DNA of 60,547 bases from Candidatus Tayloriibacteriota bacterium (GCA_016215405.1 JACRJQ010000002.1:125597-186143); one strand, 5' to 3'; shown: positions 21,956 to 47,858, counted from the first letter of the stretch. Numbers and translations: made by a program. The notes: generated by a model from the sequence alone, not told the origin.

Positions 21956-22792
21956 TCAGCGCACAGACATCTCGCGACGCGACGCCCCAACGGCGTACAA
22001 AACCCCCACCTCCTCGGCGACGAGCGCCTTCGCGAAGAAATGGATCTCGTCCATCTGCCCGTCGAAAAAGACGTTTGGGCCAGGAAAGTACCCTGTCTCG
22101 TTCCTGTTAAAGGAGAATATTATCCTTCCGAAGCTCTGGGTCGATATATTCGTATCCTGTCCTTCGAGCCTTCCGTTGACATAGAGCGAGCGCTTGCCGT
22201 TCGCCGCGTCGTGGCTTACGGCGATGTGATACCACTTACCTGTCCCGAGGGCGGTGGTCGATGTGATATTCTGCCCCGAGCCGTTGAATATGAAATAGCC
22301 TACCGTGCCGTTGGAGTTGAGATAGATATTGTTGCTATTGCCGTTCCCTCCCGAGATAGGCGGATTGATGGGCGAGTTCGACACGAGGCCTGCGTTCGCG
22401 ATCGCGTCCGGCTTTATCCAGAACGAATACGAATAGCTCTGCGTCTGATCAGTGGGATTGGTCGTCCATACATAGCCGGTCGAACCGTCGAACGAGAGCG
22501 AACACCCGGTCGCTTTTATGCTATCGGCGGTCCACGACGCTCCGCCCACGATTGTTCCGAGATTCGTACCCGCGCGATTACCGGCAGAAGAGCCGGAACA
22601 TTCGTCTAATTCCCAAATGCCCATGGCGTAATCCCCTGCTGCCCTGCCTGCTTGGGCGGCGAACTGCTTTCCCGCAGCGATACGCGCCTTGTCCCGCGCG
22701 GAGTTGAGGGACGAAAGGACCACGCTCGAAAGGAGCGAGATTATGGATACGACCACGAGCAATTCTATGAGGGTGAAGGCTCTTTTATTCAT
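21956..22792 (-). CDS. pilin-like protein (class III signal) with LamG/ConA-like domain, #1
   Basis: MNKRA|FTLIELLVVVSII; WELDECSG...SLSFDGS...YSFWIK...WYHIAVS...LYVNG...DGQMDEIHFF. ORF-track extension upstream of 22792 is spurious. Confidence 0.9.
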   Translation of the reverse strand: MNKRAFTLIELLVVVSIISLLSSVVLSSLNSARDKARIAAGKQFAAQAGRAAGDYAMGIWELDECSGSSAGNRAGTNLGTIVGGASWTADSIKATGCSLSFDGSTGYVWTTNPTDQTQSYSYSFWIKPDAIANAGLVSNSPINPPISGGNGNSNNIYLNSNGTVGYFIFNGSGQNITSTTALGTGKWYHIAVSHDAANGKRSLYVNGRLEGQDTNISTQSFGRIIFSFNRNETGYFPGPNVFFDGQMDEIHFFAKALVAEEVGVLYAVGASRREMSVR

Positions 22793-22800
22793 TACAATAT

Positions 22801-23640
22801 CTATTCGAGGGCAACCCTCGAGCGATGAAGATCGCTCGCGTAGACGTCTCCGATCTCCGACGCGACGAGGGCTTTCGCGTAGACCCGCACATCCTCGATA
22901 TTTCCGCTGAAATAGTTGCCATCCGAACATGTGGAGCTTGGCTCCGCTCCGATACAGAGGGCATTATTCGATGAATACGTGATACTACCGCTCGGCGCCG
23001 CGTTAGCCGCGACTTCCTTACCGTCGAGGTAGAGCTTCATGACCTCGCCGTCATAGGTGACGAGCGCATGGTACCAGCGTCCCACGACGAGGGCGGACGC
23101 CGGATAGGATACCGAATGATATGAGCCGCTTATGTGGATAAGGCCGCACAGGGAATTCAGGGCGCAAGCGCTATTCTCGTTTATCGAGAGCTGGTAGCCG
23201 CCGGTCTGGGTCTTCGAGAGTATCTGCCTGCCTCCTGAGAGGCTCGCGGGCTTGAACCACGCGCTGTAGGTGATAGCCGAGGTCGGAGCGAGAGCCGCCG
23301 AATAAGGGACCTCGATATAATCGTTGGTGCCGTCGAAGAGCACCGACCCGCCGACGTTCCACGGGGTGTCTGCAGACCACGCCGGACTATTGACCAGCGT
23401 GCCGTTATTGCCGCTCCCCGACCTGTCGCGGGCGACAGTACCCGCTCCGTCGTCGAGATCCCACACGCCTACCGCATAATCACCGGCGACCCTGAACGAT
23501 TGCGCCGCGAACGACTTCGCGCCGCCGAGCCGGCCTTTATCCCGCGCGGAGTTGAGGGACGAAAGGACCACGCTCGAAAGGAGCGAGATTATGGATACGA
23601 CCACGAGCAATTCTATGAGGGTGAAACCTCCCTTCTTCAT
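22801..23640 (-). CDS. pilin-like protein with LamG/ConA-like domain, #2
   Basis: MKKGG|FTLIE; WDLDDG...DRSGSGNNGTL...ITYSAWFK...WYHALVTYDG...LYLDG...FSGNIEDVRVY. Confidence 0.92.
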   Translation of the reverse strand: MKKGGFTLIELLVVVSIISLLSSVVLSSLNSARDKGRLGGAKSFAAQSFRVAGDYAVGVWDLDDGAGTVARDRSGSGNNGTLVNSPAWSADTPWNVGGSVLFDGTNDYIEVPYSAALAPTSAITYSAWFKPASLSGGRQILSKTQTGGYQLSINENSACALNSLCGLIHISGSYHSVSYPASALVVGRWYHALVTYDGEVMKLYLDGKEVAANAAPSGSITYSSNNALCIGAEPSSTCSDGNYFSGNIEDVRVYAKALVASEIGDVYASDLHRSRVALE

Positions 23641-23660
23641 ATCTAATGAGTATATCAAAG

Positions 23661-23698
23661 GAAAAAGGCGGCGCGCAGAGAAGCGCGCCGCCTTTTTC
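23661..23698. terminator. intrinsic terminator after rnc
   Basis: GAAAAAGGCGGCGCGC-AGAGAA-GCGCGCCGCCTTTTTC. Confidence 0.8.
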
Positions 23699-23702
23699 CA
23701 AA

Positions 23703-24401
23703 CTAAGACGACCAACCTTTAAGCTCGAGAGCCCGCAAAGCGGCGTTCTGTTCGGCCTCCTGCTTCGACTTGCCCTCTCCTACCGCGATCTGGTCCTTTC
23801 CGATGAGGACTCCGACGGTGAAAGACTTGTCGTGATCGGGGCCCGATTCGCGCACGAGCTTGTATGAAGGAGTGATGCCCGACTTCTCTTGGGCCTTCTC
23901 CTGGAAAAGGGACTTCGCGTCCACCAGATTCCCCCTGGCTATCATCTTGTCCGCGAACACGAGGATGTTGCGCTCGATGAAGGTCTTGGCGGTCTCATAA
24001 TCCTGATCGAGATATATCGCTCCGACCACCGCTTCGAACGTGTTAGCGAGGATGTATTGTCGCGCGCGGCCCGTGTCCTTCGATTCGCCTTTGGACAGGA
24101 GAAGGAAGTCGTTCATAGAGAGGTTCGACGCTACCTCGGCGAGCGTAATCGCGTTCACGAGCGCAGACCGATAGGTGGTAAGCTCCCCTTCCGGCTTGTC
24201 GCCGTACTTCTTGTAGAGGAAGTCTGTGACGACGAGCTCAAGGACCGCGTCGCCGAGGAATTCCAGGCGCTCGTTGTGCTCAAGCCTCGTGTTCTTGTTC
24301 TCGTTTATATAGGAACGGTGGGTGAACGCCTGCTTGAGGAGCCCCTTGTCTTTAAAGGCGACGCTTGCCTTCTCTTCGAACCGGCTAAAATTGATATCCA
24401 T
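23703..24401 (-). CDS. rnc: ribonuclease III
   Basis: HNERLEFLGDAVL signature, LANTFEAVVGAIYLD, C-terminal dsRBD. Confidence 0.98.
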   Translation of the reverse strand: MDINFSRFEEKASVAFKDKGLLKQAFTHRSYINENKNTRLEHNERLEFLGDAVLELVVTDFLYKKYGDKPEGELTTYRSALVNAITLAEVASNLSMNDFLLLSKGESKDTGRARQYILANTFEAVVGAIYLDQDYETAKTFIERNILVFADKMIARGNLVDAKSLFQEKAQEKSGITPSYKLVRESGPDHDKSFTVGVLIGKDQIAVGEGKSKQEAEQNAALRALELKGWSS

Positions 24402-24527
24402 GCTGGGATAATGGGTTAATCCTTAACTTTCAATTATCAACCAATTATTAATTAGAAATCACGAATTAATAACTGAAAATTAATTGCGGTTGATATTACC
24501 TTTTAATGGGAATTCCGCAACCGAGCG

Positions 24528-25427
24528 CTATTTCTTCGGGATGAGCTTTATCGCCTTCGCCATGATCGGCATCATGTCGTCGTAGAAATTAAGCTCTCCT
24601 ATCTCGCCTGCCTTAAACCACTGCGCCTTGTCGAGCCCGCCGGTCTTTTTGAGGGTGAGAGGGCCGTAGGACGTCTCCGCGAGGAAATAGGTCACCTGCT
24701 TCCTGAGCTTTCCCTTTTCGGGATGGGTCGCCACGTATTCGTTCGCCGCGAGCTCTTTGAGGATCTTCACGTCGACGCCGATCTCCTCCTTTATCTTCCT
24801 TATGGTCCCAGCCTTCACGTCTTCGCCGTCTTCGAGGCCGCCCTTCGAGAGCGTCCAGCGGCCGAACACGTCATGCACCAAAGCGAGGTGTATCTCGCCT
24901 TCATGGCGGGAGAACACGACGGCTCCGCCGAGCTTTACGATCGGCATCTTGTCGAACGGCACGTTGAACTTGTCGTCTTTCTTCTTCGACACCGCGTCCT
25001 TTCCCGGCTCTCCGAGCTCCTTGTAGACGGAGCCCAGGACGCCGTTCACGAATTTGCCAGAATTCTCGCCGCCGAACGACTTTGCGAGCTCAATAGCCTC
25101 GTTGATGGCCACTTTCGCGGGCACTTCCTCCCTATCGGCGAACAAAAGCTCGTAGAGGCCGATCCTCAGCACGTTTCGATCGACGACGGAGATCTTGTCG
25201 AGCGGCCAATCAGGGGCCGCCTTGGTGATTATGGTGTCTATCTCCGGACGCTTCTTGACGACGCCAGCGCCGAGCTCTTCCATGAACTTGATATCGGAGT
25301 TTCCTGAGGCGAATTCGGACGCGTTGCGGCCTATGGCATCAGAGAGGATGCCGTCATTGTGGTCGCGGAAGTCCCACTCGAAGAGAGATTGCAGAACGAC
25401 CGAGCGAGCAAGGTGCCTATTTGCCAT
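24528..25427 (-). CDS. nusB: NusB antitermination factor fused to a C-terminal Nudix domain
   Basis: MANRHLARSVVLQSLFEWD...DRNVLRIGLYEL...INEAIELAK...FVNGVLG, followed by WTLSKGGLEDGEDVKAGTIRKIKEEIGV. Confidence 0.92.
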   Translation of the reverse strand: MANRHLARSVVLQSLFEWDFRDHNDGILSDAIGRNASEFASGNSDIKFMEELGAGVVKKRPEIDTIITKAAPDWPLDKISVVDRNVLRIGLYELLFADREEVPAKVAINEAIELAKSFGGENSGKFVNGVLGSVYKELGEPGKDAVSKKKDDKFNVPFDKMPIVKLGGAVVFSRHEGEIHLALVHDVFGRWTLSKGGLEDGEDVKAGTIRKIKEEIGVDVKILKELAANEYVATHPEKGKLRKQVTYFLAETSYGPLTLKKTGGLDKAQWFKAGEIGELNFYDDMMPIMAKAIKLIPKK

Positions 25428-25573
25428 ACAACGTGCTTATATCGTTAAATTGCCTTAGCGTTACGGTATCCATACTACAACTACGTTCGAAAAGCGCAAG
25501 TTCGCCGCCGTGCCGGCGCCTGAGGCTTGTTTGCCTGCACGATAGAAAAAAGCAGCCTCTCGGCTGCTTTTTT

Positions 25574-25798
25574 CTATCGTGCGGTCTGTGCCTCTTTCGC
25601 CTTCTTGGCCTTCTTCTGGGCCCTCTTATCGACGTCGATCGCTACGATGCCTTTATATTTGCCCGTTATCGCCGACGCGCGGTGGCGGAGGTGGACTGTC
25701 CCCGTCTTCGAGTCTACGGTCAAAGCAGGATTCTTGAGCGCGTGATGAGAGCGCCTGTTTCCTGTATGAGACCGCGTGGATCGCATTCGTACTACCAT
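25574..25798 (-). CDS. rpmF: 50S ribosomal protein L32 (cysteine-free form)
   Basis: RMRSTRSHTGNRRSHHAL...HLRHRA...GKYKG. Confidence 0.88.
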   Translation of the reverse strand: MVVRMRSTRSHTGNRRSHHALKNPALTVDSKTGTVHLRHRASAITGKYKGIVAIDVDKRAQKKAKKAKEAQTAR

Positions 25799-25843
25799 AG
25801 GCCATGTACTATAGCAGAAGCCGCAAAAAAGGCAAATCGAGGC

Positions 25844-26659
25844 TTACCTTCCCGCCAAGACCTCTCTGTTTCGGGCTTCTGCAAAGAGCCTTCCTACTTC
25901 AGAAGCGGTAAGTGTCTTCGCGTATACCCTCACTTCGTCGATAAGAGCGTTCGGACTATATGAACCGGCCGGAGACCGAGCGATGTTAAGGGCGCTCGAA
26001 TTGTTCCAACTGTTGCCGCTCGAAGCCGACGTAGAGACGAGCTTGCCGTCGATATAGAGATACCTGGTCCCTCCGCTTACGACTCCGACGAAATGCTTCC
26101 ACACGTTCGTGTCTCCTCCCTGCGCGATATAAGGCGCGTTCTGGGCATTGTACGCGATGAACATAAAGCCGTTGCCGTTGAATCCATAAGACGGAGCCGC
26201 ACCGTTAAGAAGACTATCCCCTTTATGCAAGAAAACCGCGCTCGCCGTGCTTCTCAGGTATATCCACATGGAGACGGTGAAGTTGTCGGCAAGGTCGAGA
26301 GAGGAGGAATCCGGCACGAGGACATAGCCTGCGCCGCTGACGTCGAGAGAGCAGCCTCGACCATACGGGGTATTAGCCGACCATGAATACGTGCCCGTAA
26401 GGGTGCCGATGTTCCCATTACCCGACCTGTCCGCCGCCACAGTGCCGGCGCACTCGTCGAAATCCCAAATCGCGGCCGCAGAGTCGCCCGCAGCGCGATG
26501 GACCCCCGAATCGAACTGCTTCCCTGCCGTCACCCTCGCCTTATCTCTCGCAGAGTTGAGAGACGAAAGGACCACGCTCGAGAGGAGCGAGATTATAGAG
26601 ATCACCACGAGAAGCTCTATGAGCGTGAAAGCCTGCCTGTAGTTCGAACGCTTGTTCAT
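25844..26659 (-). CDS. pilin-like protein with LamG/ConA-like domain, #3
   Basis: MNKRSNYRQA|FTLIE; WDFDECAG...FTVSMWIY...WKHFVGV...LYIDG...IDEVRVY; start overlaps the rnhB stop (ATGA). Confidence 0.92.
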   Translation of the reverse strand: MNKRSNYRQAFTLIELLVVISIISLLSSVVLSSLNSARDKARVTAGKQFDSGVHRAAGDSAAAIWDFDECAGTVAADRSGNGNIGTLTGTYSWSANTPYGRGCSLDVSGAGYVLVPDSSSLDLADNFTVSMWIYLRSTASAVFLHKGDSLLNGAAPSYGFNGNGFMFIAYNAQNAPYIAQGGDTNVWKHFVGVVSGGTRYLYIDGKLVSTSASSGNSWNNSSALNIARSPAGSYSPNALIDEVRVYAKTLTASEVGRLFAEARNREVLAGR

Positions 26660-27252
26660 AGGATCGCGGTTAGAAAGCTCTTTCGATGTAAGGGCGAGAC
26701 GCCCTGCTTTTTGATCGCGAGGTAATGAGCATTCGTGCCGTATCCTTTATGGGCTTCGAATCCGTAATCAGGATAGGATACGGCCTGCTCTTCCATATAC
26801 CTGTCCCGCGTGACCTTGGCCGCGATCGAAGCGGCGGATATCACAGGGACCTTCTCGTCGCCCTTTATTATGGTTTGCTGCGAGGCGAACTCTTTCGGCG
26901 CCCTAAGGGATCCGTCGAGGTATACGTCCGAAAGCTCCGGGTCGAGGCCCAAGGCGCCGAGCGCCTCTGACATGGCCTTCTCTATCGCCTTCGATATCCC
27001 TATGGCGTCTATCTCGAAAGCAGGTACGGACGCACAGGCGAAATCGAGCTTTCCTTGAGCCTTAAGCTCGGTGAGCTTAAGGAACCACGACTCTCTTTTT
27101 TTCTGCGAGAGCTTCTTGGAGTCCCGTATGCCCTCGAAAGACCTGAGATCGAATCCCTCAGGCACCACACAGACGCCGACAGTGACCGGACCGGCCACAG
27201 GCCCGCGACCGACCTCGTCTATCCCTACCGCGCACCTGGAGCTTATGGGCAT
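26656..27252 (-). CDS. rnhB: ribonuclease HII
   Basis: GIDEVGRGPVAGPV, DSKKL, DGS, KGDE, ISAASIAAKVTRD, HKGYGT, HRKSF; true start MPISS at 27252. Confidence 0.96.
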   Translation of the reverse strand: MPISSRCAVGIDEVGRGPVAGPVTVGVCVVPEGFDLRSFEGIRDSKKLSQKKRESWFLKLTELKAQGKLDFACASVPAFEIDAIGISKAIEKAMSEALGALGLDPELSDVYLDGSLRAPKEFASQQTIIKGDEKVPVISAASIAAKVTRDRYMEEQAVSYPDYGFEAHKGYGTNAHYLAIKKQGVSPLHRKSFLTAIL

Positions 27253-27767
27253 GGATTCTTCTTTAAAGGGATCAGAATCTCGAAATCGTCTCCGCCTCCT
27301 GTGGCGCCGTCGGGACCATAGGACATGATGCCGTCTTGGCGGCAATCGTTCGCGCCTCCTTCGCCTTCGTTCTCGTCTATACCGTACGGAGAGCCCCAGG
27401 GGTCTCTGTCCATATTCGTAAGACCGGTGACGACGCCGTTCGTATTGGTCTGCACCGCGTTTCTCACCGCTATCCAATTCGTATAACAGGCGCCGGACGT
27501 CCCCGATACGACGCCGGAACAAGAGCACCTGCTGCAGGTCGTATTGTTCGACCCGCTGCCTGCCGATATCTGGACCAATGTCTTATTCGACTCGCCTTGG
27601 GCCACCGCTACAGCCTTCGCGAATTGAAGCATCTCCTGACGCGCTTTCGATATCCTCGCCTTTGTCCTCGCCGCATTGAGCGAAGCGAGGACCACAGAGG
27701 AAAGGAGCGATATGATCGAGACGACCACGAGGAGCTCTATGAGGGTGAAGGCTCGCTTCTTATTCAT
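27243..27767 (-). CDS. pilin/pseudopilin-like protein, six-Cys GspG-like type, #4
   Basis: MNKKRA|FTLIE; CSRCSC, DPWGSPY, SYGPDG, C-terminal CP. Confidence 0.9.
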   Translation of the reverse strand: MNKKRAFTLIELLVVVSIISLLSSVVLASLNAARTKARISKARQEMLQFAKAVAVAQGESNKTLVQISAGSGSNNTTCSRCSCSGVVSGTSGACYTNWIAVRNAVQTNTNGVVTGLTNMDRDPWGSPYGIDENEGEGGANDCRQDGIMSYGPDGATGGGDDFEILIPLKKNPCP

Positions 27768-27804
27768 ATAGAAAGATTATAGCAAAGCGAACAAGGGCGG
27801 CCTT

Positions 27805-28335
27805 CTAGGGGCATTTTGGCGAAAGAGGGATGGTGATCGGACTCGCGACGTCGTCGCCTCCTCCAGACGCGCCGTCCGGACCGACGGAATATATGGTATC
27901 CGACGCCGTGCAATTCCCTCCCTCGCCCTGATTCTCGTCTACGAGATATGGGCTCCCCCACGGATCTCGAGACATGTTGGCGAGCCCTGTGACGATGCCG
28001 TTCGTATTCGATTGCACCCCGTTGAGCACCGCTACCCAGTTGGTGTAGCAGATCCCGGTGCTTCCTCGCAGGTCTCCCGAGCACGAGGCTACGCACAGGC
28101 TGCAGTTAGGTACCGTGCTCCCGCCGTTCGACGACATGGTCATGAGCAATTTCGATGACTCCCCTTGAGCTATAGCGACCGCCTTTATGAAGGCAGCCAT
28201 ATCCTGTTTCGCCTTTGCTATCCCTGCCTTCGTCCTCGCCGCGTTAAGGGACGCGAGAGCGATACTCGAGAGAAGCGAGATTATAGAGACCACCACCAAA
28301 AGCTCGATAAGGGTAAACCCCTTTCCCCGTTCCAT
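27805..28335 (-). CDS. pilin/pseudopilin-like protein, six-Cys GspG-like type, #5
   Basis: MERGKG|FTLIE; CSLCVASC, DPWGSPY, SVGPDG, PKCP. Confidence 0.9.
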   Translation of the reverse strand: MERGKGFTLIELLVVVSIISLLSSIALASLNAARTKAGIAKAKQDMAAFIKAVAIAQGESSKLLMTMSSNGGSTVPNCSLCVASCSGDLRGSTGICYTNWVAVLNGVQSNTNGIVTGLANMSRDPWGSPYLVDENQGEGGNCTASDTIYSVGPDGASGGGDDVASPITIPLSPKCP

Positions 28336-28371
28336 AGATGCGATTATAGCAAAACGAGCCTGAAAATAAGC

Positions 28372-28887
28372 CTACGGGCATTTCGCCGAAAGCGGGACCT
28401 CCTGCGTGATGTCGTCAGAATCTCCCCATATCCCGTTAGGGCCGACCGATCGCAAGCCATCCCTCGTAGCACACGCGCCGGCGCCACCCTCTCCCTGATT
28501 CTCATCGACAGCGTAAGGGCTTCCCCAAGGGTCGCGTGTAATATTGGTAATCCCTGCGAAGACCCCTCCGGTGTTCGCCTGAACCGTCGTAAGCACGTTT
28601 ACCCACGCTGAATAACAGGTCCCCGTGTCTCCCATGAGATTTGCTCCCGTCCGACAGACGCAGTCGCTGCAAGTCGACCCTGTGATGGACAAGAGCGTCC
28701 TGAAACCCTCGCCTTGAGCGATCGATATAGCCTTCGCGACCTGATACATATCCTGCCTGGCTCTAGACGTCCGGGCCTTCTCCCTCGCCGCATTGAGCGA
28801 AGCGAGGACCACAGAGGAAAGGAGCGATATGATCGAGACGACCACGAGGAGCTCTATCAGAGTGAATGCTTTACGGCGACCCTTCAT
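28372..28887 (-). CDS. pilin/pseudopilin-like protein, six-Cys GspG-like type, #6
   Basis: MKGRRKA|FTLIE; CSDCVC, DPWGSPY, SVGPNG, AKCP. Confidence 0.9.
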   Translation of the reverse strand: MKGRRKAFTLIELLVVVSIISLLSSVVLASLNAAREKARTSRARQDMYQVAKAISIAQGEGFRTLLSITGSTCSDCVCRTGANLMGDTGTCYSAWVNVLTTVQANTGGVFAGITNITRDPWGSPYAVDENQGEGGAGACATRDGLRSVGPNGIWGDSDDITQEVPLSAKCP

Positions 28888-28894
28888 TGAAATC

Positions 28895-29689
28895 TTATTT
28901 AAGCGATACAGTCTTAGTTGCCGGTGATTCGAGGGCGTAGATAGCCTCGATCTCAGAAGCGACGAGGCCCTTTTGGAAAGCGCGAACACTCGTCACCTTG
29001 CCTTGGAAATAATAGCCTCCCCCTTCGTTCTCGAGTCCTATCCAAACCGCACCCGAGCCGCCACCGAAAGAGGCGCTCCCAGCTTCTTTGCCGTCGAGGT
29101 ATATCTTGCCCGTGCCGCCCGAATAGACGTAGGCCATATGGTGCCATTTCCCGTCCCACGCGTTCGTGCCGACCGCGACAGCGGAGTTGTATCCTCCGTC
29201 TTGGACGCCGACGTTGAGGCCTCCACAGTTCTTACCTACGTAAAAATCGGTGCTCGCCCCGCCGAACAAGGCGCGATAGCAATCTCCCGCCCCGCCTTCG
29301 TATTTGTACCAGGCCATTATCGTGAAAGGATTCTGGTTCGATCGGCTCAGAGGAGTCGTCATATATTGCGTCGATCCGTTGAGGTTGATGGAATACCCCG
29401 TTCCCCACGGCGTGTCCGTAGACCAAGAGGGGCTCCCCACGAGCGTGCCTCCATTGCCGTTTCCCGACCTGTCCGCAACAGCCGTTCCCGAACCCTCAGA
29501 GAAATCCCAGAGGCCCAAAGCGAGCTCCCCCGCCACGCGATGGAGCCCTGCTTCAAAGGATCTCGCCGCGCCTATCCGCGCCTTTTCCCTCGCCGCGTTA
29601 AGCTGCGACAAGACCACGCTCGAAAGGAGCGATATGATCGAGACGACCACGAGGAGCTCTATGAGGGTGAATGCTCTTCTATCTTTCAT
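28895..29689 (-). CDS. pilin-like protein with LamG/ConA-like domain, #7
   Basis: MKDRRA|FTLIE; WDFSEGSG...FTIMAWYK...WHHMAYVY...IYLDG. Confidence 0.92.
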   Translation of the reverse strand: MKDRRAFTLIELLVVVSIISLLSSVVLSQLNAAREKARIGAARSFEAGLHRVAGELALGLWDFSEGSGTAVADRSGNGNGGTLVGSPSWSTDTPWGTGYSINLNGSTQYMTTPLSRSNQNPFTIMAWYKYEGGAGDCYRALFGGASTDFYVGKNCGGLNVGVQDGGYNSAVAVGTNAWDGKWHHMAYVYSGGTGKIYLDGKEAGSASFGGGSGAVWIGLENEGGGYYFQGKVTSVRAFQKGLVASEIEAIYALESPATKTVSLK

Positions 29690-30506
29690 AGGCGATGAGC
29701 TTTTGCGAGCCTTTCGTATAGAGCTCTTCTATCTTCGCTATCGAAAGGGCGTCTGAATATACGGAGACCTCGTCTATGAGGCCATTCCAAAGGAGGCCCG
29801 TGCTCCCCGAATAGTGCCTTCCGATGTAGAACTGATTTGTCGACAGAAGGGTCCATGTGATGTTCCCGGAATTGCTTATGAGCCTCCCGTCCTTGTACGC
29901 CATCACCTTGAGCACATTGCCCTGCCTTTGGACTACGCCGAATATCCATTTTCCATCCATATCCGACCCGAGATCGATATAGACCCCTTCGTTCTCCGTG
30001 ACCCCGACCCTCATTATCCCGAATTGGTTGGTATTATTCCTCATAGTCATGATCGCGGTATCGCTCGTGCCGACCGAATTCGAGAATACGGTCCCCCAAG
30101 TCGTCTGAGCGCTCCTCTTGAACCAAGCTGTGATGGTGAAATCGCCTGAGAAGGTGCCCGTAGGGATCGAACCGAGCAGATACGCGTTCGAGCCGTTGAA
30201 AGAGAGAGAAGAGCCCGTGCCAGAGACGGTATCGCTCGACCAAGCCGGCGATCCCTGGAAGGCGCCCGAGCTTCCATTCCTCGAAAGATCGCGAGCGCTC
30301 GTCCCCGAATTGTCGTCGAAATCCCATATGCCCCTCGCGTCTCCGCCGAGAGACCGATTGAACTGCGCCGAAAATCTCAACGCCGCTGCCTTCTGCGCTT
30401 TTGCTCGCGCGGAATTTATCGAGGCGAGCACGATAGACGACAAAAGCGATATGATCGATATCACGACGAGGAGCTCTATCAGTGTGAACGCGCGGCGAGG
30501 GACCAT
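29679..30506 (-). CDS. pilin-like protein with LamG/ConA-like domain, #8
   Basis: MVPRRA|FTLIE; WDFDDNSG...FTITAWFK...WNGLIDEVSVY. Confidence 0.92.
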   Translation of the reverse strand: MVPRRAFTLIELLVVISIISLLSSIVLASINSARAKAQKAAALRFSAQFNRSLGGDARGIWDFDDNSGTSARDLSRNGSSGAFQGSPAWSSDTVSGTGSSLSFNGSNAYLLGSIPTGTFSGDFTITAWFKRSAQTTWGTVFSNSVGTSDTAIMTMRNNTNQFGIMRVGVTENEGVYIDLGSDMDGKWIFGVVQRQGNVLKVMAYKDGRLISNSGNITWTLLSTNQFYIGRHYSGSTGLLWNGLIDEVSVYSDALSIAKIEELYTKGSQKLIAYER

Positions 30507-36149: not shown

Positions 36150-36152
36150 CGC

Positions 36153-36596
36153 ATGCGAAACAAAGGATTCACCCTCATAGAGCTCCTCGTGGTCATATCC
36201 ATAATCGCCCTGCTTTCGTCGGTGGCGCTCTCCTCTCTCAATGCGGCGAGGGCGAAGGGCAGATATGCGACCATAATAAGGCAGATGAAGGAGATCCAGA
36301 CCGCCTCGCACGGGTATTACACGGACACGGGTTCGCACGCCGCCGACACGGGTCCCGGAGGCGCGCCTGCGTTCGTCCCTGCCTACCTGAGGTCCTGGCC
36401 CACGCCTCCGTGCGGCGCGGGCTGGACGTACGATTGGGATAACTGGACGTCGAGTAACGGCTTCGTAGGAGTGCATCTCCATAACACGACCTTGGGAGCG
36501 CAGTATAAGCTTTGCACCGACACTACCTCCGCATGTTCGGCGTCGAGCGTGCAGGACATACTCACCGTGGCCCAGAGGTCGATCACCTGCCAATAG
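36153..36596 (+). CDS. pilin-like protein, short four-Cys type, #9
   Basis: MRNKG|FTLIE; YLRSWPTPPCG; starts 3 nt after the thrS stop. Confidence 0.9.
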   Translation: MRNKGFTLIELLVVISIIALLSSVALSSLNAARAKGRYATIIRQMKEIQTASHGYYTDTGSHAADTGPGGAPAFVPAYLRSWPTPPCGAGWTYDWDNWTSSNGFVGVHLHNTTLGAQYKLCTDTTSACSASSVQDILTVAQRSITCQ

Positions 36597-39278: not shown

Positions 39279-39292
39279 CTGGACGGTGCACC

Positions 39293-39646
39293 ATGATCCC
39301 GAAAAACTCCCTCCCGGCCGTTAAGGCCCTGTTCTTAAAACACGCGGTGGCATCGAAATTCGGCGCGGCGGCCCCTCGGACCGAATCCGAAGAAGAGCTC
39401 AAGGCAAGGATCAAAAAGTTCTACAGGACCTACGATCCCACGGACGTCGACGAGATCTACTCTCAGACCTCCAGCTTCGCGGCCGAGGTGGTCCCGATGG
39501 CGGCAGGGCTTATCGCCCAAGGCCATGACCCCGAGGCCGTCATGCCTCGGATACGGCGGCTCCTCGTGAGCGCGCTAGGAGATATCCCGCAAGCCGACAA
39601 GATCGTCTGCGGCCTGTATTTCTTCGCAGATCGCCACGCCAATTGA
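39293..39646 (+). CDS. hypothetical protein (117 aa)
   Basis: Protein-like composition; own predicted promoter; hairpin downstream. Confidence 0.6.
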   Translation: MIPKNSLPAVKALFLKHAVASKFGAAAPRTESEEELKARIKKFYRTYDPTDVDEIYSQTSSFAAEVVPMAAGLIAQGHDPEAVMPRIRRLLVSALGDIPQADKIVCGLYFFADRHAN

Positions 39647-39697
39647 TGCCGATGACCGCATGCTTGCAGGCGCGACCCCCGGGTCGCGCCTTTTTGT

Positions 39698-41635: not shown

Positions 41636-41928
41636 TGCCTTATCTCTATCACGCTCGTCATCGCTTCGGGACCCTCGCTTCGATACGCCTTCCATCTCTC
41701 TGCATGAGCAAGGGCGAGAGCCTCCTTGCTCGCCTGGACCTCCCTCGCCTCGTCCTGCCATTTCGCTATCGCGACGAAGTGATCCGGCTCGATATGGTAG
41801 AGCGACGCCTCGAGAAGGCCGTACCTCTCTCGGTTCGCCTCAGAAAGCTGCCACCAGTCCTTGCAGAATTCCTTCTGGAGGCTTTCGGACGGTATCTTCC
41901 ACCTCTGTATGTACGCTACGCTCGACAT
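41632..41928 (-). CDS. ABM-like (dimeric alpha+beta barrel) small protein
   Basis: YIQRWKI...EFCKDW...ASLYH...FVAIAKWQD pattern; fills the pheS-pheT gap with a 1-nt gap and a 4-nt overlap. Confidence 0.6.
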   Translation of the reverse strand: MSSVAYIQRWKIPSESLQKEFCKDWWQLSEANRERYGLLEASLYHIEPDHFVAIAKWQDEAREVQASKEALALAHAERWKAYRSEGPEAMTSVIEIRQ

Positions 41929-41929
41929 A

Positions 41930-42646
41930 TCAGAATTGATTTATGAGCCTGAGGTCTCCCGAATAGAGGTGCCTGATATCGTCTATGCCGTATCGCAAAA
42001 GAACGAAACGGTCTACGCCGCCGCCGAACGCGAAGCCTTTCCAGACCTTCGGATCGAGGCCTGCGGACTTTATGACCTCTGGGTGTACGATGCCCGCTCC
42101 TAGCATCTCGAGCCACCTGTCTTTCCACCATACGTCGACCTCGACGCCCGGCTCGACGAAGCCGAAATAGCTGGAGCGGAACCTGATCCTCGCGTCGGGC
42201 CCGAGAAATTCCCCAAAGAACCTCTCGAGGGTGCCCTTGAGCTCGGCCATCGACACCTCCTTGTTCACATAGAGGCCCTCGATCTGATAGAACTGCGCCT
42301 CGTGTGTCGCGTCGGTCGCCTCGTTCCTATACACCTTCCCTGGAACGATTATCTTTACAGGTTTCGGATCTGCCTTCATAGCCTCCATGAATCTCACCTG
42401 CACGGGAGAAGTGTGGGTGCGCAGGACCCTCTTTTCCTCGCCTGGCTTCGTCTTTATCCAGAACGTATCCTGCATATCGCGAGCGGGATGGTCGGCAGGG
42501 ATATTGAGCGCGTCGAAATTATAGAATTCCGTCTCGAGCTCAGGGCCTTGCGCTACAGAGAACCCCATCTTGTCGAATATCGCCGACATCTCACGGATGA
42601 CGGACGTTACGGGGTGAAGGTGGCCTCTTTTATTCGCTTCTGACAT
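41930..42646 (-). CDS. pheS: phenylalanyl-tRNA synthetase alpha subunit (catalytic core only)
   Basis: GHLHP, NFDALNIPADHPARDMQDTF, LRTHTSPVQ, FYQIEG, FGFVEP, GFAFGGGVDR. Confidence 0.97.
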   Translation of the reverse strand: MSEANKRGHLHPVTSVIREMSAIFDKMGFSVAQGPELETEFYNFDALNIPADHPARDMQDTFWIKTKPGEEKRVLRTHTSPVQVRFMEAMKADPKPVKIIVPGKVYRNEATDATHEAQFYQIEGLYVNKEVSMAELKGTLERFFGEFLGPDARIRFRSSYFGFVEPGVEVDVWWKDRWLEMLGAGIVHPEVIKSAGLDPKVWKGFAFGGGVDRFVLLRYGIDDIRHLYSGDLRLINQF

Positions 42647-42718
42647 TAGGCTTAAAATATAGCAAAAAAGGCCGGTTTTATAAAGAAAAGCCGCCGGACA
42701 GAGTCCGGCGGCTTTTCT

Positions 42719-43456
42719 TTATTTCTTTGAAAATCCCTCGAATGCCTTGAGGAGCTCCATCGGGAGCGTGAATACCACGGTATTCGACTGGTCGGACGAG
42801 ATGTCGTTCATCGCCTGGAGGGTTCGTAGATGGAGGGCTCCCGGCGCCTCGGAGAGCGTCCTCGCGGCCTTCGCCATGTTCTGCGATGCGGCGAGCTCGC
42901 CTTCGGAGGTGATGATGACCGCCCTCTTCTCGCGCTCCGCCTCTGCCTGCTTAGCGATAGTCCTCTCCATATCTGGAGGCAAGGACACGTCTTTAAGCTC
43001 GACATTAGAGACCTTGAGCCCCCAGGCGTTCGATTCGGTCGCGATGACCTCCCTGATGCGGTTCGCGATCGCCTCGCGGCCGGAAAGAAGGTCGTCGAGC
43101 GTCGTCTCTCCGACGATATTCCTCATCGTAGTCTGAGCATACTGAGATATCGCGTGCATGAAATCCTCGACTTCCAAGATAGACTTCTCGGCCGATTCGA
43201 CCTTGTAATAGAGGACCGCGTTCACCTTGACCGATATGTTGTCTCGGGTGATCGCGTTCTGATCCGGGACGTCGACCGCTTTCACGCGCATGTCCACCTT
43301 GCGGTACGACTGGAATACGGGGACGACGACCCTCCAGCCCGGCTCCATTATCTTGGTGAAGCGGCCCATGGTGAATTTAAGGCCTCGCTCGTATTGATTC
43401 ACCTGCCTAAGGCTTATGAGGACGAGAACGACCACGGCTATGATGATGTATTGCAT
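42719..43456 (-). CDS. SPFH/band 7 (stomatin-like) membrane protein
   Basis: N-terminal TM, VDVPDQNAITRDNISVKVNAV, AQTTMRNIVG, AKQAEAEREKRA. Confidence 0.93.
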   Translation of the reverse strand: MQYIIIAVVVLVLISLRQVNQYERGLKFTMGRFTKIMEPGWRVVVPVFQSYRKVDMRVKAVDVPDQNAITRDNISVKVNAVLYYKVESAEKSILEVEDFMHAISQYAQTTMRNIVGETTLDDLLSGREAIANRIREVIATESNAWGLKVSNVELKDVSLPPDMERTIAKQAEAEREKRAVIITSEGELAASQNMAKAARTLSEAPGALHLRTLQAMNDISSDQSNTVVFTLPMELLKAFEGFSKK

Positions 43457-43554
43457 GTGATTTTCGCTAGTAACTTGTAAGTAAGTATAGCAAACGAAAG
43501 CCGGCGAACGAGATTAATACCGCCTCTAAGCTTTTTCTCCTAACACCCCGTCAG

Positions 43555-43685
43555 GTCCGCACCCCTTACGGGAACCGTCCGCTCATTGTCCGCCCAGGGC
43601 GGATCAATGAGTCTTGCGGTTCGGCCCCAAAAACCTCACCTCCTCGCGAAAGGCACTTGCGCCCCGCAGCGAAGAAAATGCGGAC
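43555..43685. repeat. GTCCGCA...TGCGGAC-bounded structured element, copy 2
   Basis: Terminal inverted repeat plus nested hairpins (CTCATTG/CAATGAG, TCCGCCC/GGGCGGA, AACCG/CGGTT); right end homologous to the 12127 element. Confidence 0.55.
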
Positions 43686-43722
43686 TGGCTAATATAGAAG
43701 ACTTGGCCAGAAAGATAATCTG

Positions 43723-43795
43723 AGCCACCTCCCAGGCTTGAACTGGGGACCTACTGTTTACAAAACAGTTGCTCTACCAACTGAGCTAAGGTGGC
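43723..43795 (-). tRNA. tRNA-Thr(TGT)
   Basis: GCCACCTTAGCTCAGTTGGTAGAGCAACTGTTTTGTAAACAGTAGGTCCCCAGTTCAAGCCTGGGAGGTGGCT; CCA not encoded. Confidence 0.96.
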
Positions 43796-43867
43796 GGATT
43801 CGACAGATAACTTATATCAGATAACAGGCAGGGAGACAAAGAAAAAAGACCGGTCTACCGGTCTCTC

Positions 43868-44260
43868 TTAGAGGCCCTCTGTGATTTGCTTCTCTCCTTT
43901 CCCTTCTTTGATCTTCTTGAGATAGAAAGAAGCAGCGCCTGATCGGGACAGGTCCTCGGTCTTCTTCGACGCCTTCTCTACGATACGATTCAAGAGGTCG
44001 TGTGCCTCGCGAAAGCCCTTTATGAAAAGCCTCACCACGAAGACGAATCCGCGGTTGGCGATGAGCACCGCGTTCTTAAGCGTGATCCTCGATATCATCT
44101 GCGAGGCAGAGCCCTTTATGGACGAGAGCATCGGGTCCGCTTTGGCAGAGAGGTCGCGCAGAGGCGTCTTGAGGCCCCTCGACCTCTCGAGATAGCCAGA
44201 AGCGAGCATGCCCGCCATGCCCGCGCCCGAAACTATCATGAGCCAGAGCTCGAGGGTCAT
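43868..44260 (-). CDS. hypothetical membrane-anchored protein
   Basis: N-terminal hydrophobic helix; co-oriented right after tsf. Confidence 0.65.
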   Translation of the reverse strand: MTLELWLMIVSGAGMAGMLASGYLERSRGLKTPLRDLSAKADPMLSSIKGSASQMISRITLKNAVLIANRGFVFVVRLFIKGFREAHDLLNRIVEKASKKTEDLSRSGAASFYLKKIKEGKGEKQITEGL

Positions 44261-44271
44261 ATGTCGCGAGA

Positions 44272-44850
44272 TTATGCGCCGTAGCGGGTGAAGCGTACGA
44301 TCTCTATCTTCTCTCCGAATTTCTGGACGGCCGCGCTCACGAGACCGGCGATAGTGACCTCAGGATTCTTTATGAAAGGCTGCTCCATGAGGACACGCTC
44401 GGAGAAATACGCCTTGAGCTTCCCTTCGAGGATCTTCGCCTTCATCTCCTCCGGCTTACCCTCTACCTCCGCTGCGAAAACGGACTCGGCGGTCTTCTTG
44501 TCTGACTCGGTGATGCTCTCCATCTTCACGAACTCAGGCTTCGTCGCGGCGATGTGCATAGCGATATCTCGCGCGAGCTCCTTGAACTCAGGGTTCTTTG
44601 CTACGAAATCAGTCTCGCACGCGAGCTCGACCATGACTCCCACCACTCCTGTCGAGTGGATATAGGCCGCTATCTGGGTAGCGTTGAGGGTCCTGTCCCC
44701 CTTCTTGGCGGCCGCCTCGGCGCCCTTCTTCTTGAGGATGACGAGAGCCTTGTCCTTGTCGCCTCCGGCCTCTTCGAGGGCCTTCTTGCACTGCATTACT
44801 GATACGCCGGTAGCGTCTCGGAGCTCTTTGATGAGATCGGTGGTGACCAT
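44272..44850 (-). CDS. tsf: elongation factor Ts (short form)
   Basis: IKELRDATGVSVMQCKKAL, ELACETDFVAKN, QPFIKN, IVRFTRY. Confidence 0.97.
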   Translation of the reverse strand: MVTTDLIKELRDATGVSVMQCKKALEEAGGDKDKALVILKKKGAEAAAKKGDRTLNATQIAAYIHSTGVVGVMVELACETDFVAKNPEFKELARDIAMHIAATKPEFVKMESITESDKKTAESVFAAEVEGKPEEMKAKILEGKLKAYFSERVLMEQPFIKNPEVTIAGLVSAAVQKFGEKIEIVRFTRYGA

Positions 44851-44911
44851 AATATGACTTTATTCTATTAAGACGGCAAAAGCCGCGATATGCGGCTATT
44901 CTATCACGAAA

Positions 44912-45628
44912 CTACTTCTTCGCCTCAGGCTTCGCGACCTTGCCTTCGGCATAGGCGCGCGCCAATTCGTCGAGGAAGAACGTCGCGGAAGCCGCGGAAG
45001 AATCGTTGGCAGGGATAGCGAAATTCACGAGAGACAGGTCGCAGTCGGACGAGGCGATAGCCACTACAGGGACGCCGGTCTGGCGAGCCTCCTCTACGGC
45101 GATGAACTCCTTCTTAGGGTCTACGACGATGAGAACGCCCGGCTTCTCGCGCATCGATACGACGCCGCCGAACATGAGCTCGAGCTTTGCGATCTCTCGG
45201 TCGATGAGGAGCCTCTCCTTCTTGGTGTATTTCGCGAGGTCTCCCTTCTCCTTCTCCTTGAGGCGGTTCTCGTACTTCTCTATGCGCTTTCGGATCTGGA
45301 CGAAGTTCGTAAGGGTGCCGCCGATCCATCGTCCGGCGACCATTGGCTGGCCTGCCTTGTTCGCGGCAGCCTTTACCGCTTCGATGACCTCGCTCTTGCC
45401 TCCGACGAAGAGAGCTTGCTTGCCGGATGCGGCGACCGAGGCAACGAACGCCTTGGCCTTCTCGAGCTCCTCATGCGTCTTTTCGAGGTCGAAGATCTCG
45501 ATGTTGTTCTTTACGCCGAATACGAAGCCTTTGGTGGAAGGGTGTCGGCGCGACTTCAGGAGGCCGAAATGGGCCCCTACCTTGAACATCGCCTCTATGA
45601 TGGAATCCTTGTTTTTTGCGGTTGGCAT
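44912..45628 (-). CDS. rpsB: 30S ribosomal protein S2
   Basis: GAHFG, IFDLEKT, RWIGGTLTNF, AIPANDDS. Confidence 0.97.
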   Translation of the reverse strand: MPTAKNKDSIIEAMFKVGAHFGLLKSRRHPSTKGFVFGVKNNIEIFDLEKTHEELEKAKAFVASVAASGKQALFVGGKSEVIEAVKAAANKAGQPMVAGRWIGGTLTNFVQIRKRIEKYENRLKEKEKGDLAKYTKKERLLIDREIAKLELMFGGVVSMREKPGVLIVVDPKKEFIAVEEARQTGVPVVAIASSDCDLSLVNFAIPANDSSAASATFFLDELARAYAEGKVAKPEAKK

Positions 45629-45706
45629 TGTGCTTTTAATCCCTGTGGGGTGTTTTTAAAACGTTTCGAAAGTCTAACAGATAGGCCGTCAAAAGGCAAG
45701 AATGGC

Positions 45707-46690
45707 CTATTCGTCGTCGTCCGCGCCTCCTTCGGCCACCTCTCCCTTCCAGTTCGCCAAAGTATCGATGATATCGCCTATCTTCTCGCCTGAAAGGATA
45801 GTCTCTATATTGTGCCAATTCTCGCGGATCCTGTGGTCCGTGATGCGGTCTTGGGGGAAATTATAGGTGCGTATCTTCTCGGAGCGGTTTCCAGTGCCGA
45901 GCTGCCCCTTCTTGTTCGCGGCGAACTTCGCGGCCTCTTCGCTGTCCTTCTTCTCCTGGAGCATCGCGGTGAGCATCATCATCGCCTTCTCGCGGTTCTT
46001 CAGCTGGCTGCGCTCTGCCGTGACGCGGACAGCGAGGCCCGTCGGCTTGTGGAAAAGGCGCACGGCGGTCTCGACCTTGTTGACGTTCTGCCCCCCCTTG
46101 CCGCCCGCGCGCGAGAATTCGAGCTCGATATCGGCTGGATTTATCTCGACGTTGGTATGCTTTCGTATAGGCAGTATGGCGATAGAGACGGTCGAGGTAT
46201 GGACGCGACCCATTTTCTCGGTCGCGGGCACGCGCTGTACGCGGTGGACGCCCGTTTCATAGCGGAGCTTCTTGTACACCTCGCGGCCGTGGATCTCCAT
46301 GGACACTTCCTTATATCCCCCGACGTCCGCTTTAGACTCATCGAGGTACGATACCTGCCAGCCCTGGCTCTGAGCATACATTCGATACATGGTGGCGAGC
46401 TCCTCCGCGAAAAGAGCCGCCTCGTCGCCTCCCGCTCCGGCACGGATCTCCATGATGAGCTCGTTCGGGAACTCCTCCTCTGCTTTATCGGCAGCCTCTA
46501 TCGCCTCGACCTGCTTCTCGATGTCTTTCTTCTGGGCGGCGATATTCTCGAGGTCCGCCTGACCGAGCTCGGCCATCGATGCGTCGGATTGCATGAGCGC
46601 CTTCAAATCAGACTCTTCTTTCTCGAGCTTCTCATACATCTCCGCGAGGTAAGATGTCTTGTGATTCTTCTTGTATTTCGCTATATCCAT
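45707..46690 (-). CDS. prfA: peptide chain release factor 1
   Basis: GGQ motif, RF1-specific PAT in [28 protein letters not shown]. Confidence 0.96.
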
Positions 46691-46769
46691 TGGTTCTAGA
46701 GTATCGCCTTTGCCTCAAAGAGAAAAGCATAGCCCGGACGGACTATGCTTTCCCTTTAGACCACCTTCG

Positions 46770-47024
46770 CTACGCCTTCTTCTTCGCCTGGCGAGCCTTG
46801 AACTTCTCGACACGGCCTGCGGTGTCGATGACGGTCTCGTTGCCCGTATAGAACGGATGCGAAGCCGACGAGATCTCGATCTGATAGAGAGGGTATTCCT
46901 TTCCGTCCTCCCACTTGTCGGTCTCCTTGGTCGCGACGGTCGAATTTATGAGGAATCGAGCCTTCGACGAGTTGTCGCGGAAGATTACCAAGCGGTAGTT
47001 CTTTGGGTGAAGTTCCTTTTTCAT
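46770..47024 (-). CDS. rpmE2: 50S ribosomal protein L31 type B (zinc-free)
   Basis: MKKELHP...VIFRD...[12 protein letters not shown]...GRVEKF. Confidence 0.95.
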
Positions 47025-47063
47025 GAGATTGACACTATATCCGAAAGGGCTTAAAAATGCAAC

Positions 47064-47858
47064 CTAGTAGCCGTTCGCCAGCTTTTCGAACCTCGGCTTC
47101 TCCTGAGCGTAGATCTCCTCGATATCGCTCGCGACGAGCGTCTTGCCGAATATATGGACGCTGTCCATCCGGCCTTGCCACCTCTCGCCGTCCCCGGCGC
47201 TATGGGCCCCGATGCGCAGAAAATCCCAATCCATGGCGTCCGCGCAGACTCCGCCGGTGCCCACCTGGACGCCGTTTAGATAGTACTTGAATCCGATCGA
47301 AGAATCGTAGGTCGCGGCGACATGGACCCACTGATTCGAAGGGAAGGAGTTAGACGCGGTCGACCCGCACGGCCAGAAGCCCAAGGAGTTGTTGGGATAG
47401 ATATAGAGCGCGTCGTCGGAGGCGACGTTCGTCTGGACGATCGCCCTATAGCCGCTGTTTGCCTTCGTGTCATAGACCCACGCGCTCATAGTCCACGCCG
47501 ACTGGTCGCGCGCCGTATACGATGTGTCCACGAAATCGTCCACTCCGTCGAAGAGCGCGGCGCAGCCGGACCCGAACGGGACGGCCGCAGACCACATAGA
47601 CGCATTCGAAAGCGTTCCCGTATAGCCGTTATTCGACCTGTCTGCGACCGAAGTCCCGGCACATTCGTCGAAATCCCAATACGCTATCGCGAGCTCGCCT
47701 GCGACCCTGTCGGCCTGCGCTGCGAAAGACCTCGCCGATCCCTGACGCGCCTTGTCGCGCGCCGAATTGAGGCTCGCGAGGACTATCGACGACAAAAGAG
47801 AGATTATCGATACGACGACGAGGAGCTCTATGAGGGTGAAAGCGCTTTTTCTCTTCAT
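47064..47858 (-). CDS. pilin-like protein with LamG/ConA-like domain, #10
   Basis: MKRKSA|FTLIE; WDFDECAG...WTMSAWVY...WVHVAATYD...YYLNG...WQGRMDSVHIF. Confidence 0.92.
   Translation of the reverse strand: MKRKSAFTLIELLVVVSIISLLSSIVLASLNSARDKARQGSARSFAAQADRVAGELAIAYWDFDECAGTSVADRSNNGYTGTLSNASMWSAAVPFGSGCAALFDGVDDFVDTSYTARDQSAWTMSAWVYDTKANSGYRAIVQTNVASDDALYIYPNNSLGFWPCGSTASNSFPSNQWVHVAATYDSSIGFKYYLNGVQVGTGGVCADAMDWDFLRIGAHSAGDGERWQGRMDSVHIFGKTLVASDIEEIYAQEKPRFEKLANGY

Follow-up and report, generated by a model that had tools for sequence, protein, structure and literature searches.

Pilin-like genes with LamG heads, probable pilus-displayed binding modules, in a 0.84-Mb Patescibacteria genome

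The stretch of DNA analysed here (the window: 60,547 nucleotides of a Candidatus Tayloriibacteriota bacterium, GCA_016215405.1, JACRJQ010000002.1:125597-186143) corresponds to C6:125597-186143 of an 836,153-bp assembly of eight contigs, which are denoted by C and a number below; the assembly is rated 100% complete and has a G+C content of 56%. The bacterium belongs to the Patescibacteria (Paceibacteria-type) and has a genome of 0.84 Mb, and the named relatives of the proteins described here (LamG, six-Cys and four-Cys pilins) are Candidatus Paceibacterota or Parcubacteria. Translation and a six-frame motif scan of the window identify exactly ten pilin-like open reading frames (ORFs), nine on the minus strand and one (36153) on the plus strand; neither a strict nor a looser motif scan reveals a further pilin gene in the window. 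The genes are named by their first window coordinate. Four of the ORFs as listed carry spurious upstream extensions, the sensible starts being 22792, 23640, 28887, and 30506. The ten genes are as follows:

21956-22792, minus strand: LamG pilin; leader MNKRA followed by FTLIELL; N_methyl at 28.7 bits, Laminin_G_3 at E = 3.9e-23.
22801-23640, minus strand: LamG pilin, the modelled protein; leader MKKGG followed by F; Laminin_G_3 at E = 4.3e-30.
25844-26659, minus strand: LamG pilin; Laminin_G_3 at E = 1.2e-26; its start overlaps the rnhB stop (ATGA), the RNase HII gene ending at 26656.
27243-27767, minus strand: small six-Cys pilin of a family conserved across Parcubacteria; N_methyl.
27805-28335, minus strand: small six-Cys pilin, a paralogue; N_methyl, six Cys.
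28372-28887, minus strand: small six-Cys pilin, a paralogue; N_methyl, six Cys.
28895-29689, minus strand: LamG pilin; Laminin_G_3 at E = 1.6e-21; its start and the end of 29679 have 11 nt in common.
29679-30506, minus strand: LamG pilin without Cys, the one conserved orthologue group; Laminin_G_3 at E = 2.3e-17.
36153-36596, plus strand: small four-Cys pilin; N_methyl match only; starts 4 nt after the thrS stop.
47064-47858, minus strand: LamG pilin; Laminin_G_3 at E = 5.1e-21.

All ten genes encode a class III (prepilin) signal, as a preliminary description of this DNA had reported from the sequence, and both N_methyl (PF07963, Pfam) and TIGR02532 are matched above cut-off in 10/10. The leaders have 5-10 residues, include K/R, and terminate in G (four genes) or A (six genes); those seen are MNKRA, MKKGG, MNKRSNYRQA, MNKKRA, MERGKG, MKGRRKA, MKDRRA, MVPRRA, MRNKG, and MKRKSA. 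They are followed by the consensus FTLIELLVV(V/I)SII(S/A)LLSS(V/I)(V/A)L(A/S)(S/Q)(L/I)N(S/A)AR.K, in which F1, T2, L3, and E5 are invariant in 64 family members, such that all ten proteins have the Phe+1, the Glu+5, and the hydrophobic N-terminal segment of helix α1 (α1-N) of a type IV pilin. The division of the heads into six LamG, three six-Cys, and one four-Cys likewise stands: Laminin_G_3 (PF13385) is matched in 6/10 (21956, 22801, 25844, 28895, 29679, and 47064; E 2e-17 to 4e-30, 64-105 bits vs. a cut-off of 27.6), whereas the mature proteins of 27243, 27805, and 28372 contain six Cys each and that of 36153 contains four. A mature LamG pilin has about 260 residues (~27-30 kDa). Judged by sequence, this set is far beyond chance, its genes being members of three or four well-populated families (1306, 3132, and 1107 relatives).

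The protein of 22801 was modelled by AlphaFold2 with a 64-sequence alignment, at a predicted local distance difference test score (pLDDT) of 90.6 and a predicted template-modelling score of 0.80. The model comprises a continuous α1 helix (residues 8-53), a β-sandwich (residues 56-254; ~14 strands, pLDDT >90), and a short C-terminal helix. The LamG β-sandwich begins three residues after α1, and the model contains no separate pilin β-sheet between α1 and the LamG domain, which makes the LamG domain, a single LamG/ConA-like jelly roll, appear to be the pilin head itself and gives the protein a "lollipop" shape. The protein has the N-terminal IPR012902 motif plus an extra domain (N_methyl + PF13385) by which a modular pilin is defined; a complete globular pilin module in the sense of Raynaud et al. 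(2021) is absent, and the solved LamG structure 4qvs aligns from query residue 65. That the heads fold as LamG domains, as initially proposed, is supported by this model and by its matches. A Foldseek search of the PDB gave 490 matches (E ≤ 1e-3), and every one inspected was a LamG/lectin-like jelly roll; a profile search of the PDB retrieved the S-layer-domain protein 4qvs (E 2e-25). Other structural or profile relatives are the carbohydrate-binding domain 4 of the AbnA arabinanase (5hon), pentraxins, neurexin LNS domains, a sialidase carbohydrate-binding module, and the jelly-roll subdomains of several receptor-binding domains. All of these are matches at the level of the fold only. The same applies to clostridial neurotoxins, whose receptor-binding jelly-roll subdomains gave sub-threshold matches in Pfam and Foldseek and for which we claim no toxin relationship, and a match to TafC (40.8 bits vs. 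a cut-off of 410) was rejected as an identity, because it reflects the shared LamG-type region only. The nearly invariant residues of the LamG heads are Gly, Trp, Asp, and Tyr of the fold frame.

LamG modules also occur in this genome in large proteins with Sec signals, encoded at C2:1991-6609 and C6:9979-11781, which carry three or four tandem LamG_3 modules. These modules score 127-177 bits against the LamG-pilin profile and begin with the same W-x-F-D-E motif; LamG modules may be shared between pilin and non-pilin contexts. The 21-kb contig that carries the C2 Sec-signal LamG pair also carries a second PilB/PilC/pseudopilin set.

The six-Cys heads had initially been likened to GspG. All three do contain six Cys, but the resemblance is only weakly supported and lies below family thresholds: Pfam T2SSG was matched in two of the genes at 16.7-18.1 bits (cut-off 21) and in the third not at all; NCBIfam GspG scored 40.5 (cut-off 88.85) through N-terminal residues 5-55 only; PDB profile matches to the C-terminal GspG head had E of 0.04-0.37; and Foldseek with the full six-Cys model gave no significant match. 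The sole GspG resemblance in the head is a DPWGSPY-type motif. A match to BasC (19 bits vs. a cut-off of 260) is negligible, and this identity was rejected. The AlphaFold2 model of 27243 (pLDDT 91) consists of α1 and a small α/β head. This family has 3132 relatives across Parcubacteria lineages (45-79% identity among those listed), is patchy across genomes, and is missing from many close relatives. The four-Cys family of 36153 has 1107 relatives, the best at 88% identity, named Paceibacterota.

Profile searches of the window gave no match to T2SSE, T2SSF, or Peptidase_A24, confirming that no pilus ATPase, platform, or prepilin peptidase gene lies within it. Assembly genes and a prepilin peptidase, on which the original interpretation depended, are present elsewhere in the genome:

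C2:14655, C4:95144, C4:193861, and C5:127877: four PilB-like ATPases (T2SSE).
C4:93835: one PilT-like ATPase.
C4:92.4-93.4 kb, C4:171 kb, and C2:16 kb: three PilC-like platform proteins (T2SSF).
C4:90318-91121: the sole prepilin peptidase (Peptidase_A24) in the genome, with the domain match at C4:90471-90791.

The region C4:85-97 kb is a classical cluster of pilB, a response regulator, pilT, pilC, two small pilins, pilD, and four minor pilins; the first pilin of this main cluster, C4_91583, has 148 residues. Over α1-N residues 1-30, identity is 0.88 between LamG pilins, 0.85 between LamG and six-Cys pilins, 0.85 between LamG and four-Cys pilins, and 0.78 between LamG pilins and C4_91583, as against 0.5 or less to pilins of other systems. 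The invariant Glu5 and the near-identical α1-N argue for mutual packing in one putative filament type. Two PilB-like genes (C4:193861-195057 and C5:127877-129037) and one PilC-like gene (C4:170923-171903) are far from any pilin gene; thus, the four assembly ATPases outnumber the two recognisable pilus loci.

The preliminary description's count of ten is exact for the window, but it understates the repertoire of the genome: 32 pilin-like genes among ~834 ORFs (3.8%, with the ORF total taken from a simple greedy caller), occupying 21.3 kb or 2.6% of the DNA, 17 of them LamG pilins that occupy 14.1 kb. The LamG pilin has 1306 detected relatives; among the 120 listed, nearly all have N_methyl + LamG and a few LamG only, and the best non-self identity among the matches listed is 63%. 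In a set of 30 relatives, this genome has 26 LamG_3 domains and 18 same-genus genomes have 0-13, eight of them none; the genus labels are GTDB-style, and a "genus" is broad in the Paceibacteria-type group. The order was surveyed with a full-length LamG-pilin profile against one genome from each of 120 other genera; at E ≤ 1e-35, there are 16 full-length LamG pilins here vs. 0-3 in those genomes.

Turnover of the family is apparent at the window locus itself. The backbone SMC-rnc-nusB-rnhB-dnaE is kept in six relatives, with DnaE 76-87% identical. All backbone slots are free of pilins in three of these (G008, G003, and G006); G005 has two pilins in the rnhB-dnaE slot; G012 has one LamG gene in the SMC-rnc slot and a TAG-interrupted six-Cys gene in rnhB-dnaE; and in G004 the SMC-rnc slot holds the orthologue (57% identity) of 29679, a gene that sits in rnhB-dnaE here. 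Thus, the genes are not invariant orthologues in close relatives, in keeping with the modular library first envisaged: slots are empty or differently filled, and LamG domains range from 0 to 26 within the genus. The heads of 37 proteins form a star-like tree (median tip branch 0.94); only 4/34 inner branches are strongly supported, 21/34 inner forks have <80% support, and this genome's 17 copies do not form a single clade, some of them having closer orthologues in other genomes. The Cys-free 29679 clade, with copies in G004 and G014, has a support of 100 and tip branches of 0.15-0.29. A recent duplication burst is ruled out by the 21-50% amino-acid identity of the LamG heads within this genome, by their non-monophyly (in a poorly resolved tree), and by the orthologues elsewhere. 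Rather, the family looks like an old multigene family that has evolved by birth, death, and relocation, as far as its sequences indicate. One LamG pilin, C8_129224 (C8:129212-129940), appears truncated, with an in-frame TAG; the six-Cys pilin of G012 (C6:33718-34236 of that genome), in the rnhB-dnaE slot, likewise has an in-frame TAG. These TAG-bearing copies look like decay, which would be consistent with birth-and-death turnover.

Over the first 90 nt of mature coding sequence, the 276 pairs of FTLIELLVV-type genes have a median identity of 74%, and where residues agree the codon is the same in only 53% of cases, so that the stem is conserved generally at the level of protein, not DNA. Particular neighbours depart from this in sharing exact tracts:

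22692-22777 = 23540-23625, minus strand: 86-nt exact tract in the α1-N codons of 21956 and 22801.
27666-27740 = 28783-28857, minus strand: 75-nt exact tract of 27243 and 28372 (six-Cys).
27700-27749 = 29622-29671, minus strand: 50-nt exact tract of 27243 (six-Cys) and 28895 (LamG), overlapping the 75-nt tract.
C8_99528 and C8_100390, outside the window: 92-nt exact tract.

In the two longest tracts, identity extends from the Phe+1 codon exactly to near codon 30, whereas leaders and upstream DNA are unrelated. For 21956/22801, nucleotide identity is 0.98 in the stem and 0.47 in the rest of the gene, and the heads are 31% identical in amino acids; the heads of tract-sharing neighbours are only 31-50% identical. 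Across the five neighbour pairs analysed, the remainder of the gene has 42-55% nucleotide identity, and codon identity at conserved residues is 0.38-0.49. Given the identity frequencies at each site, 86-92 identical bases would arise by chance with a probability of 4e-14 to 4e-15 per pair. Runs of at least 41 nt occur in 7/19 pairs <3 kb apart, 41 nt being the maximum among 257 distant pairs; a rank test of near vs. far run lengths was not significant (Mann-Whitney p=0.20), and conversion is therefore episodic, not general. Weaker tracts (50 and 42 nt) occur between neighbouring pilin genes in G004 and G018, and the between-genome maximum is 29 nt. These exact tracts indicate a probable short-tract gene conversion of the constant α1-N segment, and they point to a family that is actively recombining.

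Recent duplication throughout the family is ruled out as the source of the N-terminal conservation by the 53% codon identity and by the restriction of exact tracts to particular neighbours. The notion that heads are swappable, put forward in the preliminary description, is at most a conjecture; what is found is conversion of the stem between some neighbours, unrelated upstream regions, and old, divergent heads. Diversification by a diversity-generating retroelement (DGR) is ruled out: there is no match to a reverse transcriptase (RVT_1) in the genome, repeats of at least 35 nt among the pilin genes comprise only their conserved 5' segments, and the window contains no template/variable repeats of that length. 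Phase variation by simple repeats is ruled out by a tandem-repeat scan, which found no simple-sequence or relevant tandem repeats in or before the pilin genes.

Extended -10-like elements, all 6-8 nt from the ATG, precede four of the genes: TGCTATAAT precedes 27243 (8 nt) and 27805 (7 nt), TGATATACT lies 8 nt before the ATG of 22801, and GCATAAT precedes 29679. No Shine-Dalgarno sequence is visible before the -10-bearing pilin genes. The position of the -10 box beside the ATG, together with the lack of a Shine-Dalgarno sequence, suggests short-leader or leaderless mRNAs in this genome. The elements before the six-Cys genes would be consistent with abundant subunits. A generic promoter scan showed no enrichment over shuffles, and the -10 elements are therefore a lead only. 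An upstream element of ~35 nt, with a TGnTATAAT-type box 7-8 nt before the ATG, is common to 27768-27802, 23641-23675, and 57556-57590. Upstream of 22801, a 17-bp G+C-rich hairpin followed by a T-run (23660-23699) resembles an intrinsic terminator that would separate the two transcription units.

The local gene order is SMC, two LamG genes, rnc, nusB-NUDIX, one LamG gene, rnhB, three six-Cys and two LamG genes, and dnaE. Beyond dnaE, the four-Cys gene follows thrS (encoding ThrRS, upstream) and the last LamG gene, 47064, adjoins and follows a gene for an SLT-domain protein. The gene at 24528-25427 (minus strand) encodes NusB (E 6e-35, residues 7-136) fused to a C-terminal NUDIX hydrolase domain (E 8e-13, residues 175-282); this fusion is kept in six relatives at 77-85% identity.

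We consider it probable that the ten genes, as part of the 32-gene pilin-like family, encode binding modules displayed on pili, and we infer the processing, filament assembly, filament position, ligand binding, and role in host choice of these proteins as follows. The basic leader would be cut after G/A(-1) by the sole A24 prepilin peptidase, the hydrophobic α1-N with Glu5 would keep the protein in the membrane, and a PilB/PilC machine would insert it into a type IV filament. There, LamG pilins would co-polymerise with small pilins of nearly the same α1-N, namely the neighbouring six-Cys pilins, the four-Cys pilin, and the 148-residue pilin of the main cluster (pilB-pilT-pilC-pilA-pilD). The small, apparently strongly promoted pilins would be the natural bulk subunits and the LamG pilins the displayed binding modules, with their heads exposed at the filament tip or sparsely along it as putative lectin-like modules for ligands on host cells or other surfaces. 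Many divergent paralogues could provide many binding specificities. Birth-and-death evolution would account for slots variably occupied in relatives, and short-tract conversion, by keeping α1-N identical in some neighbours, would preserve co-assembly.

Several observations weigh against display on a pilus or against ligand binding by the heads. Residues 41-50 of the helix have the lowest confidence in the AlphaFold2 model (pLDDT 71) and there is no classical pilin β-sheet, so that packing of the LamG head into the filament body is only putative. LamG_3 domains also bind proteins or are purely structural, and no sugar-binding residues could be assigned in the LamG heads. LamG and six-Cys pilins are missing from many close relatives and are therefore dispensable accessories, not core pilus parts. 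None of the ten genes adjoins assembly genes, and several are inside housekeeping operons (rnhB, thrS); consequently, the pilins cannot be assigned to one of the three or four machines.

The dispersal of the genes, partly embedded in housekeeping operons and not in pilus loci, and the surplus PilB/PilC sets without adjacent pilins would also suit a display system resembling the Sulfolobus bindosome, in which sugar-binding proteins carry a class III signal. The signal would then provide an anchor in the membrane or in a short pseudopilus, and the LamG heads would capture polysaccharides or nutrients for uptake rather than mediate host adhesion. The Sec-signal multi-LamG proteins of this genome, with their very similar modules, fit such a role, as do the S-layer-domain protein and the arabinanase carbohydrate-binding domain among the best solved sequence relatives; Candidate Phyla Radiation (CPR) bacteria, moreover, depend on scavenging. 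We nevertheless regard this explanation as rather unlikely, because the invariant Glu5, the extreme conservation of α1-N, and the homogenisation of neighbours point to packing in a filament and not just to anchoring, because no transporter genes are adjacent, and because the negligible BasC match concerns a six-Cys pilin. It is improbable that each LamG pilin is instead an alternative major subunit that forms the bulk of a filament, with the cell switching between them as a form of surface variation that evades phages or host defences or alters the whole fibre: the analysis revealed no device for switching (the genome has neither a reverse transcriptase nor a DGR, and the genes are free of simple-sequence tracts), and the small, strongly promoted pilins with the same α1-N are more conventional majors. 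Yet every copy is a complete gene that has a start codon and Glu5 of its own, promoter-like -10 elements precede several of them, the mature size of ~260 residues exceeds that of large type IVb pilins only moderately, and the heads are extremely divergent (by the tip branches of the tree) with recombination between copies. Heads that act as enzymes, such as ConA-fold glycoside hydrolases or similar on a pilin anchor that attack host cell walls, are hardly to be expected. Although the ConA-like superfamily includes glucanases and an SLT-domain gene lies beside 47064, the Pfam match is to the non-catalytic Laminin_G_3, no glycoside-hydrolase family is matched, the solved relatives are binding or structural proteins, and the near-invariant residues belong to the fold frame and form no catalytic motif.

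A more speculative reading, which we think doubtful, is that the dispersed LamG pilins constitute a recombining recognition repertoire comparable to the receptor-binding-protein sets of phages or to pilin antigenic variation. The α1-N would serve as both assembly adaptor and homology anchor; heads could then undergo duplication, loss, and transfer among slots that differ in regulation; and the hosts or surfaces to which a lineage attaches would depend on the set it carries.

How ultrasmall CPR/Patescibacteria recognise partner cells is a central open question, and experiments have been almost only in Saccharibacteria. For the much larger Paceibacteria-type group, a candidate toolkit is available in this genome: 17 small lectin-like heads, predicted to fold well, on a common stem, together with candidate major pilins and one peptidase. 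As a domain of ~200 residues that is predicted to be soluble, each head would lend itself to expression and screening. Close relatives in which the heads are absent provide a natural comparison by which the repertoire may be linked to ecology, and the conversion tracts bear on how surface diversity arises in minimal genomes without retroelements.

A full-text literature search found no description of LamG-pilin expansions in CPR. In a scan of genome contigs for the FTLIELLVV pattern, the matches listed were mainly prepilin records of the Planctomycetes-Verrucomicrobia-Chlamydiae type, so we place little weight on it with respect to distribution. Planctomycetota, Verrucomicrobiota, and Lentisphaerota have large dispersed prepilin-type families (DUF1559 / H-X9-DG) with an FTLIELLVV-type signal; unlike the genes described here, these families have a head that is not LamG_3 and occur in much larger genomes, and the function of DUF1559 is likewise not known. 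In Neisseria, promoterless, 5'-truncated silent cassettes (pilS) donate variable sequence to one expression locus (pilE). Both systems have paralogues with constant 5' and variable 3' parts and non-reciprocal recombination; here, however, every copy is complete, the converted tract is the constant α1-N, and upstream regions differ.

The modular-pilin principle is established for PilB and PilC of Streptococcus sanguinis (PMC8179133, PMC9934059). PilC is a pilin with a lectin module for which glycan binding was shown experimentally and a location at the pilus tip was modelled (PMC9934059). It shares with the LamG pilins the class III signal, α1, a ConA-superfamily β-sandwich, and type IV pilus machinery in a cell lacking an outer membrane; unlike them, it keeps a short pilin moiety, has immunoglobulin-like and lectin modules, amounts to 52.8 kDa, and is a single gene in the pil locus, whereas here the LamG domain follows directly after α1, the proteins are ~27-30 kDa, and 17 paralogues lie outside pilus loci. 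PilC is not among the profile matches listed, and its lectin module and the LamG modules are therefore related only at the superfamily level. The survey of Raynaud et al. (2021; PMC8179133) places N_methyl + PF13385 among the 15 commonest architectures of modular pilins, with carbohydrate binding predicted, and CPR organisms contribute several of the modular pilins that it depicts as representatives. The architecture in that survey (IPR012902 + PF13385) is exactly that found here; the survey is a catalogue of architectures only, gives no structure, and does not treat copy numbers, family expansion, recombination, or the turnover of slots. Type IV pili and pilin families are enriched in CPR (PMC6744442), and TM7x (Nanosynbacter lyticus) has lectin-like minor pilins, its binding to the host being sugar-sensitive and affected by host cell-wall glycans (PMC11623550). 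Its PilX1, compared by description only, is likewise a CPR type IV pilin with a lectin-like jelly roll (L-type-lectin-like), but it is one gene in the type IV pilus locus of a member of the Saccharimonadia, a different class, and has a lollipop pilin domain with a C-terminal add-on. By analogy, the reading of the LamG pilins as putative pilus-displayed lectin adhesins matches these precedents (PMC9934059, PMC8179133, PMC11623550). What is new is the scale, 17 copies in 0.84 Mb, which is extreme among the sampled genomes of the order, as well as the LamG domain as the head itself, the dispersed slot-wise turnover, and the conversion tracts; the LamG pilins are an unusually large variant of a known pilus-adhesin design.

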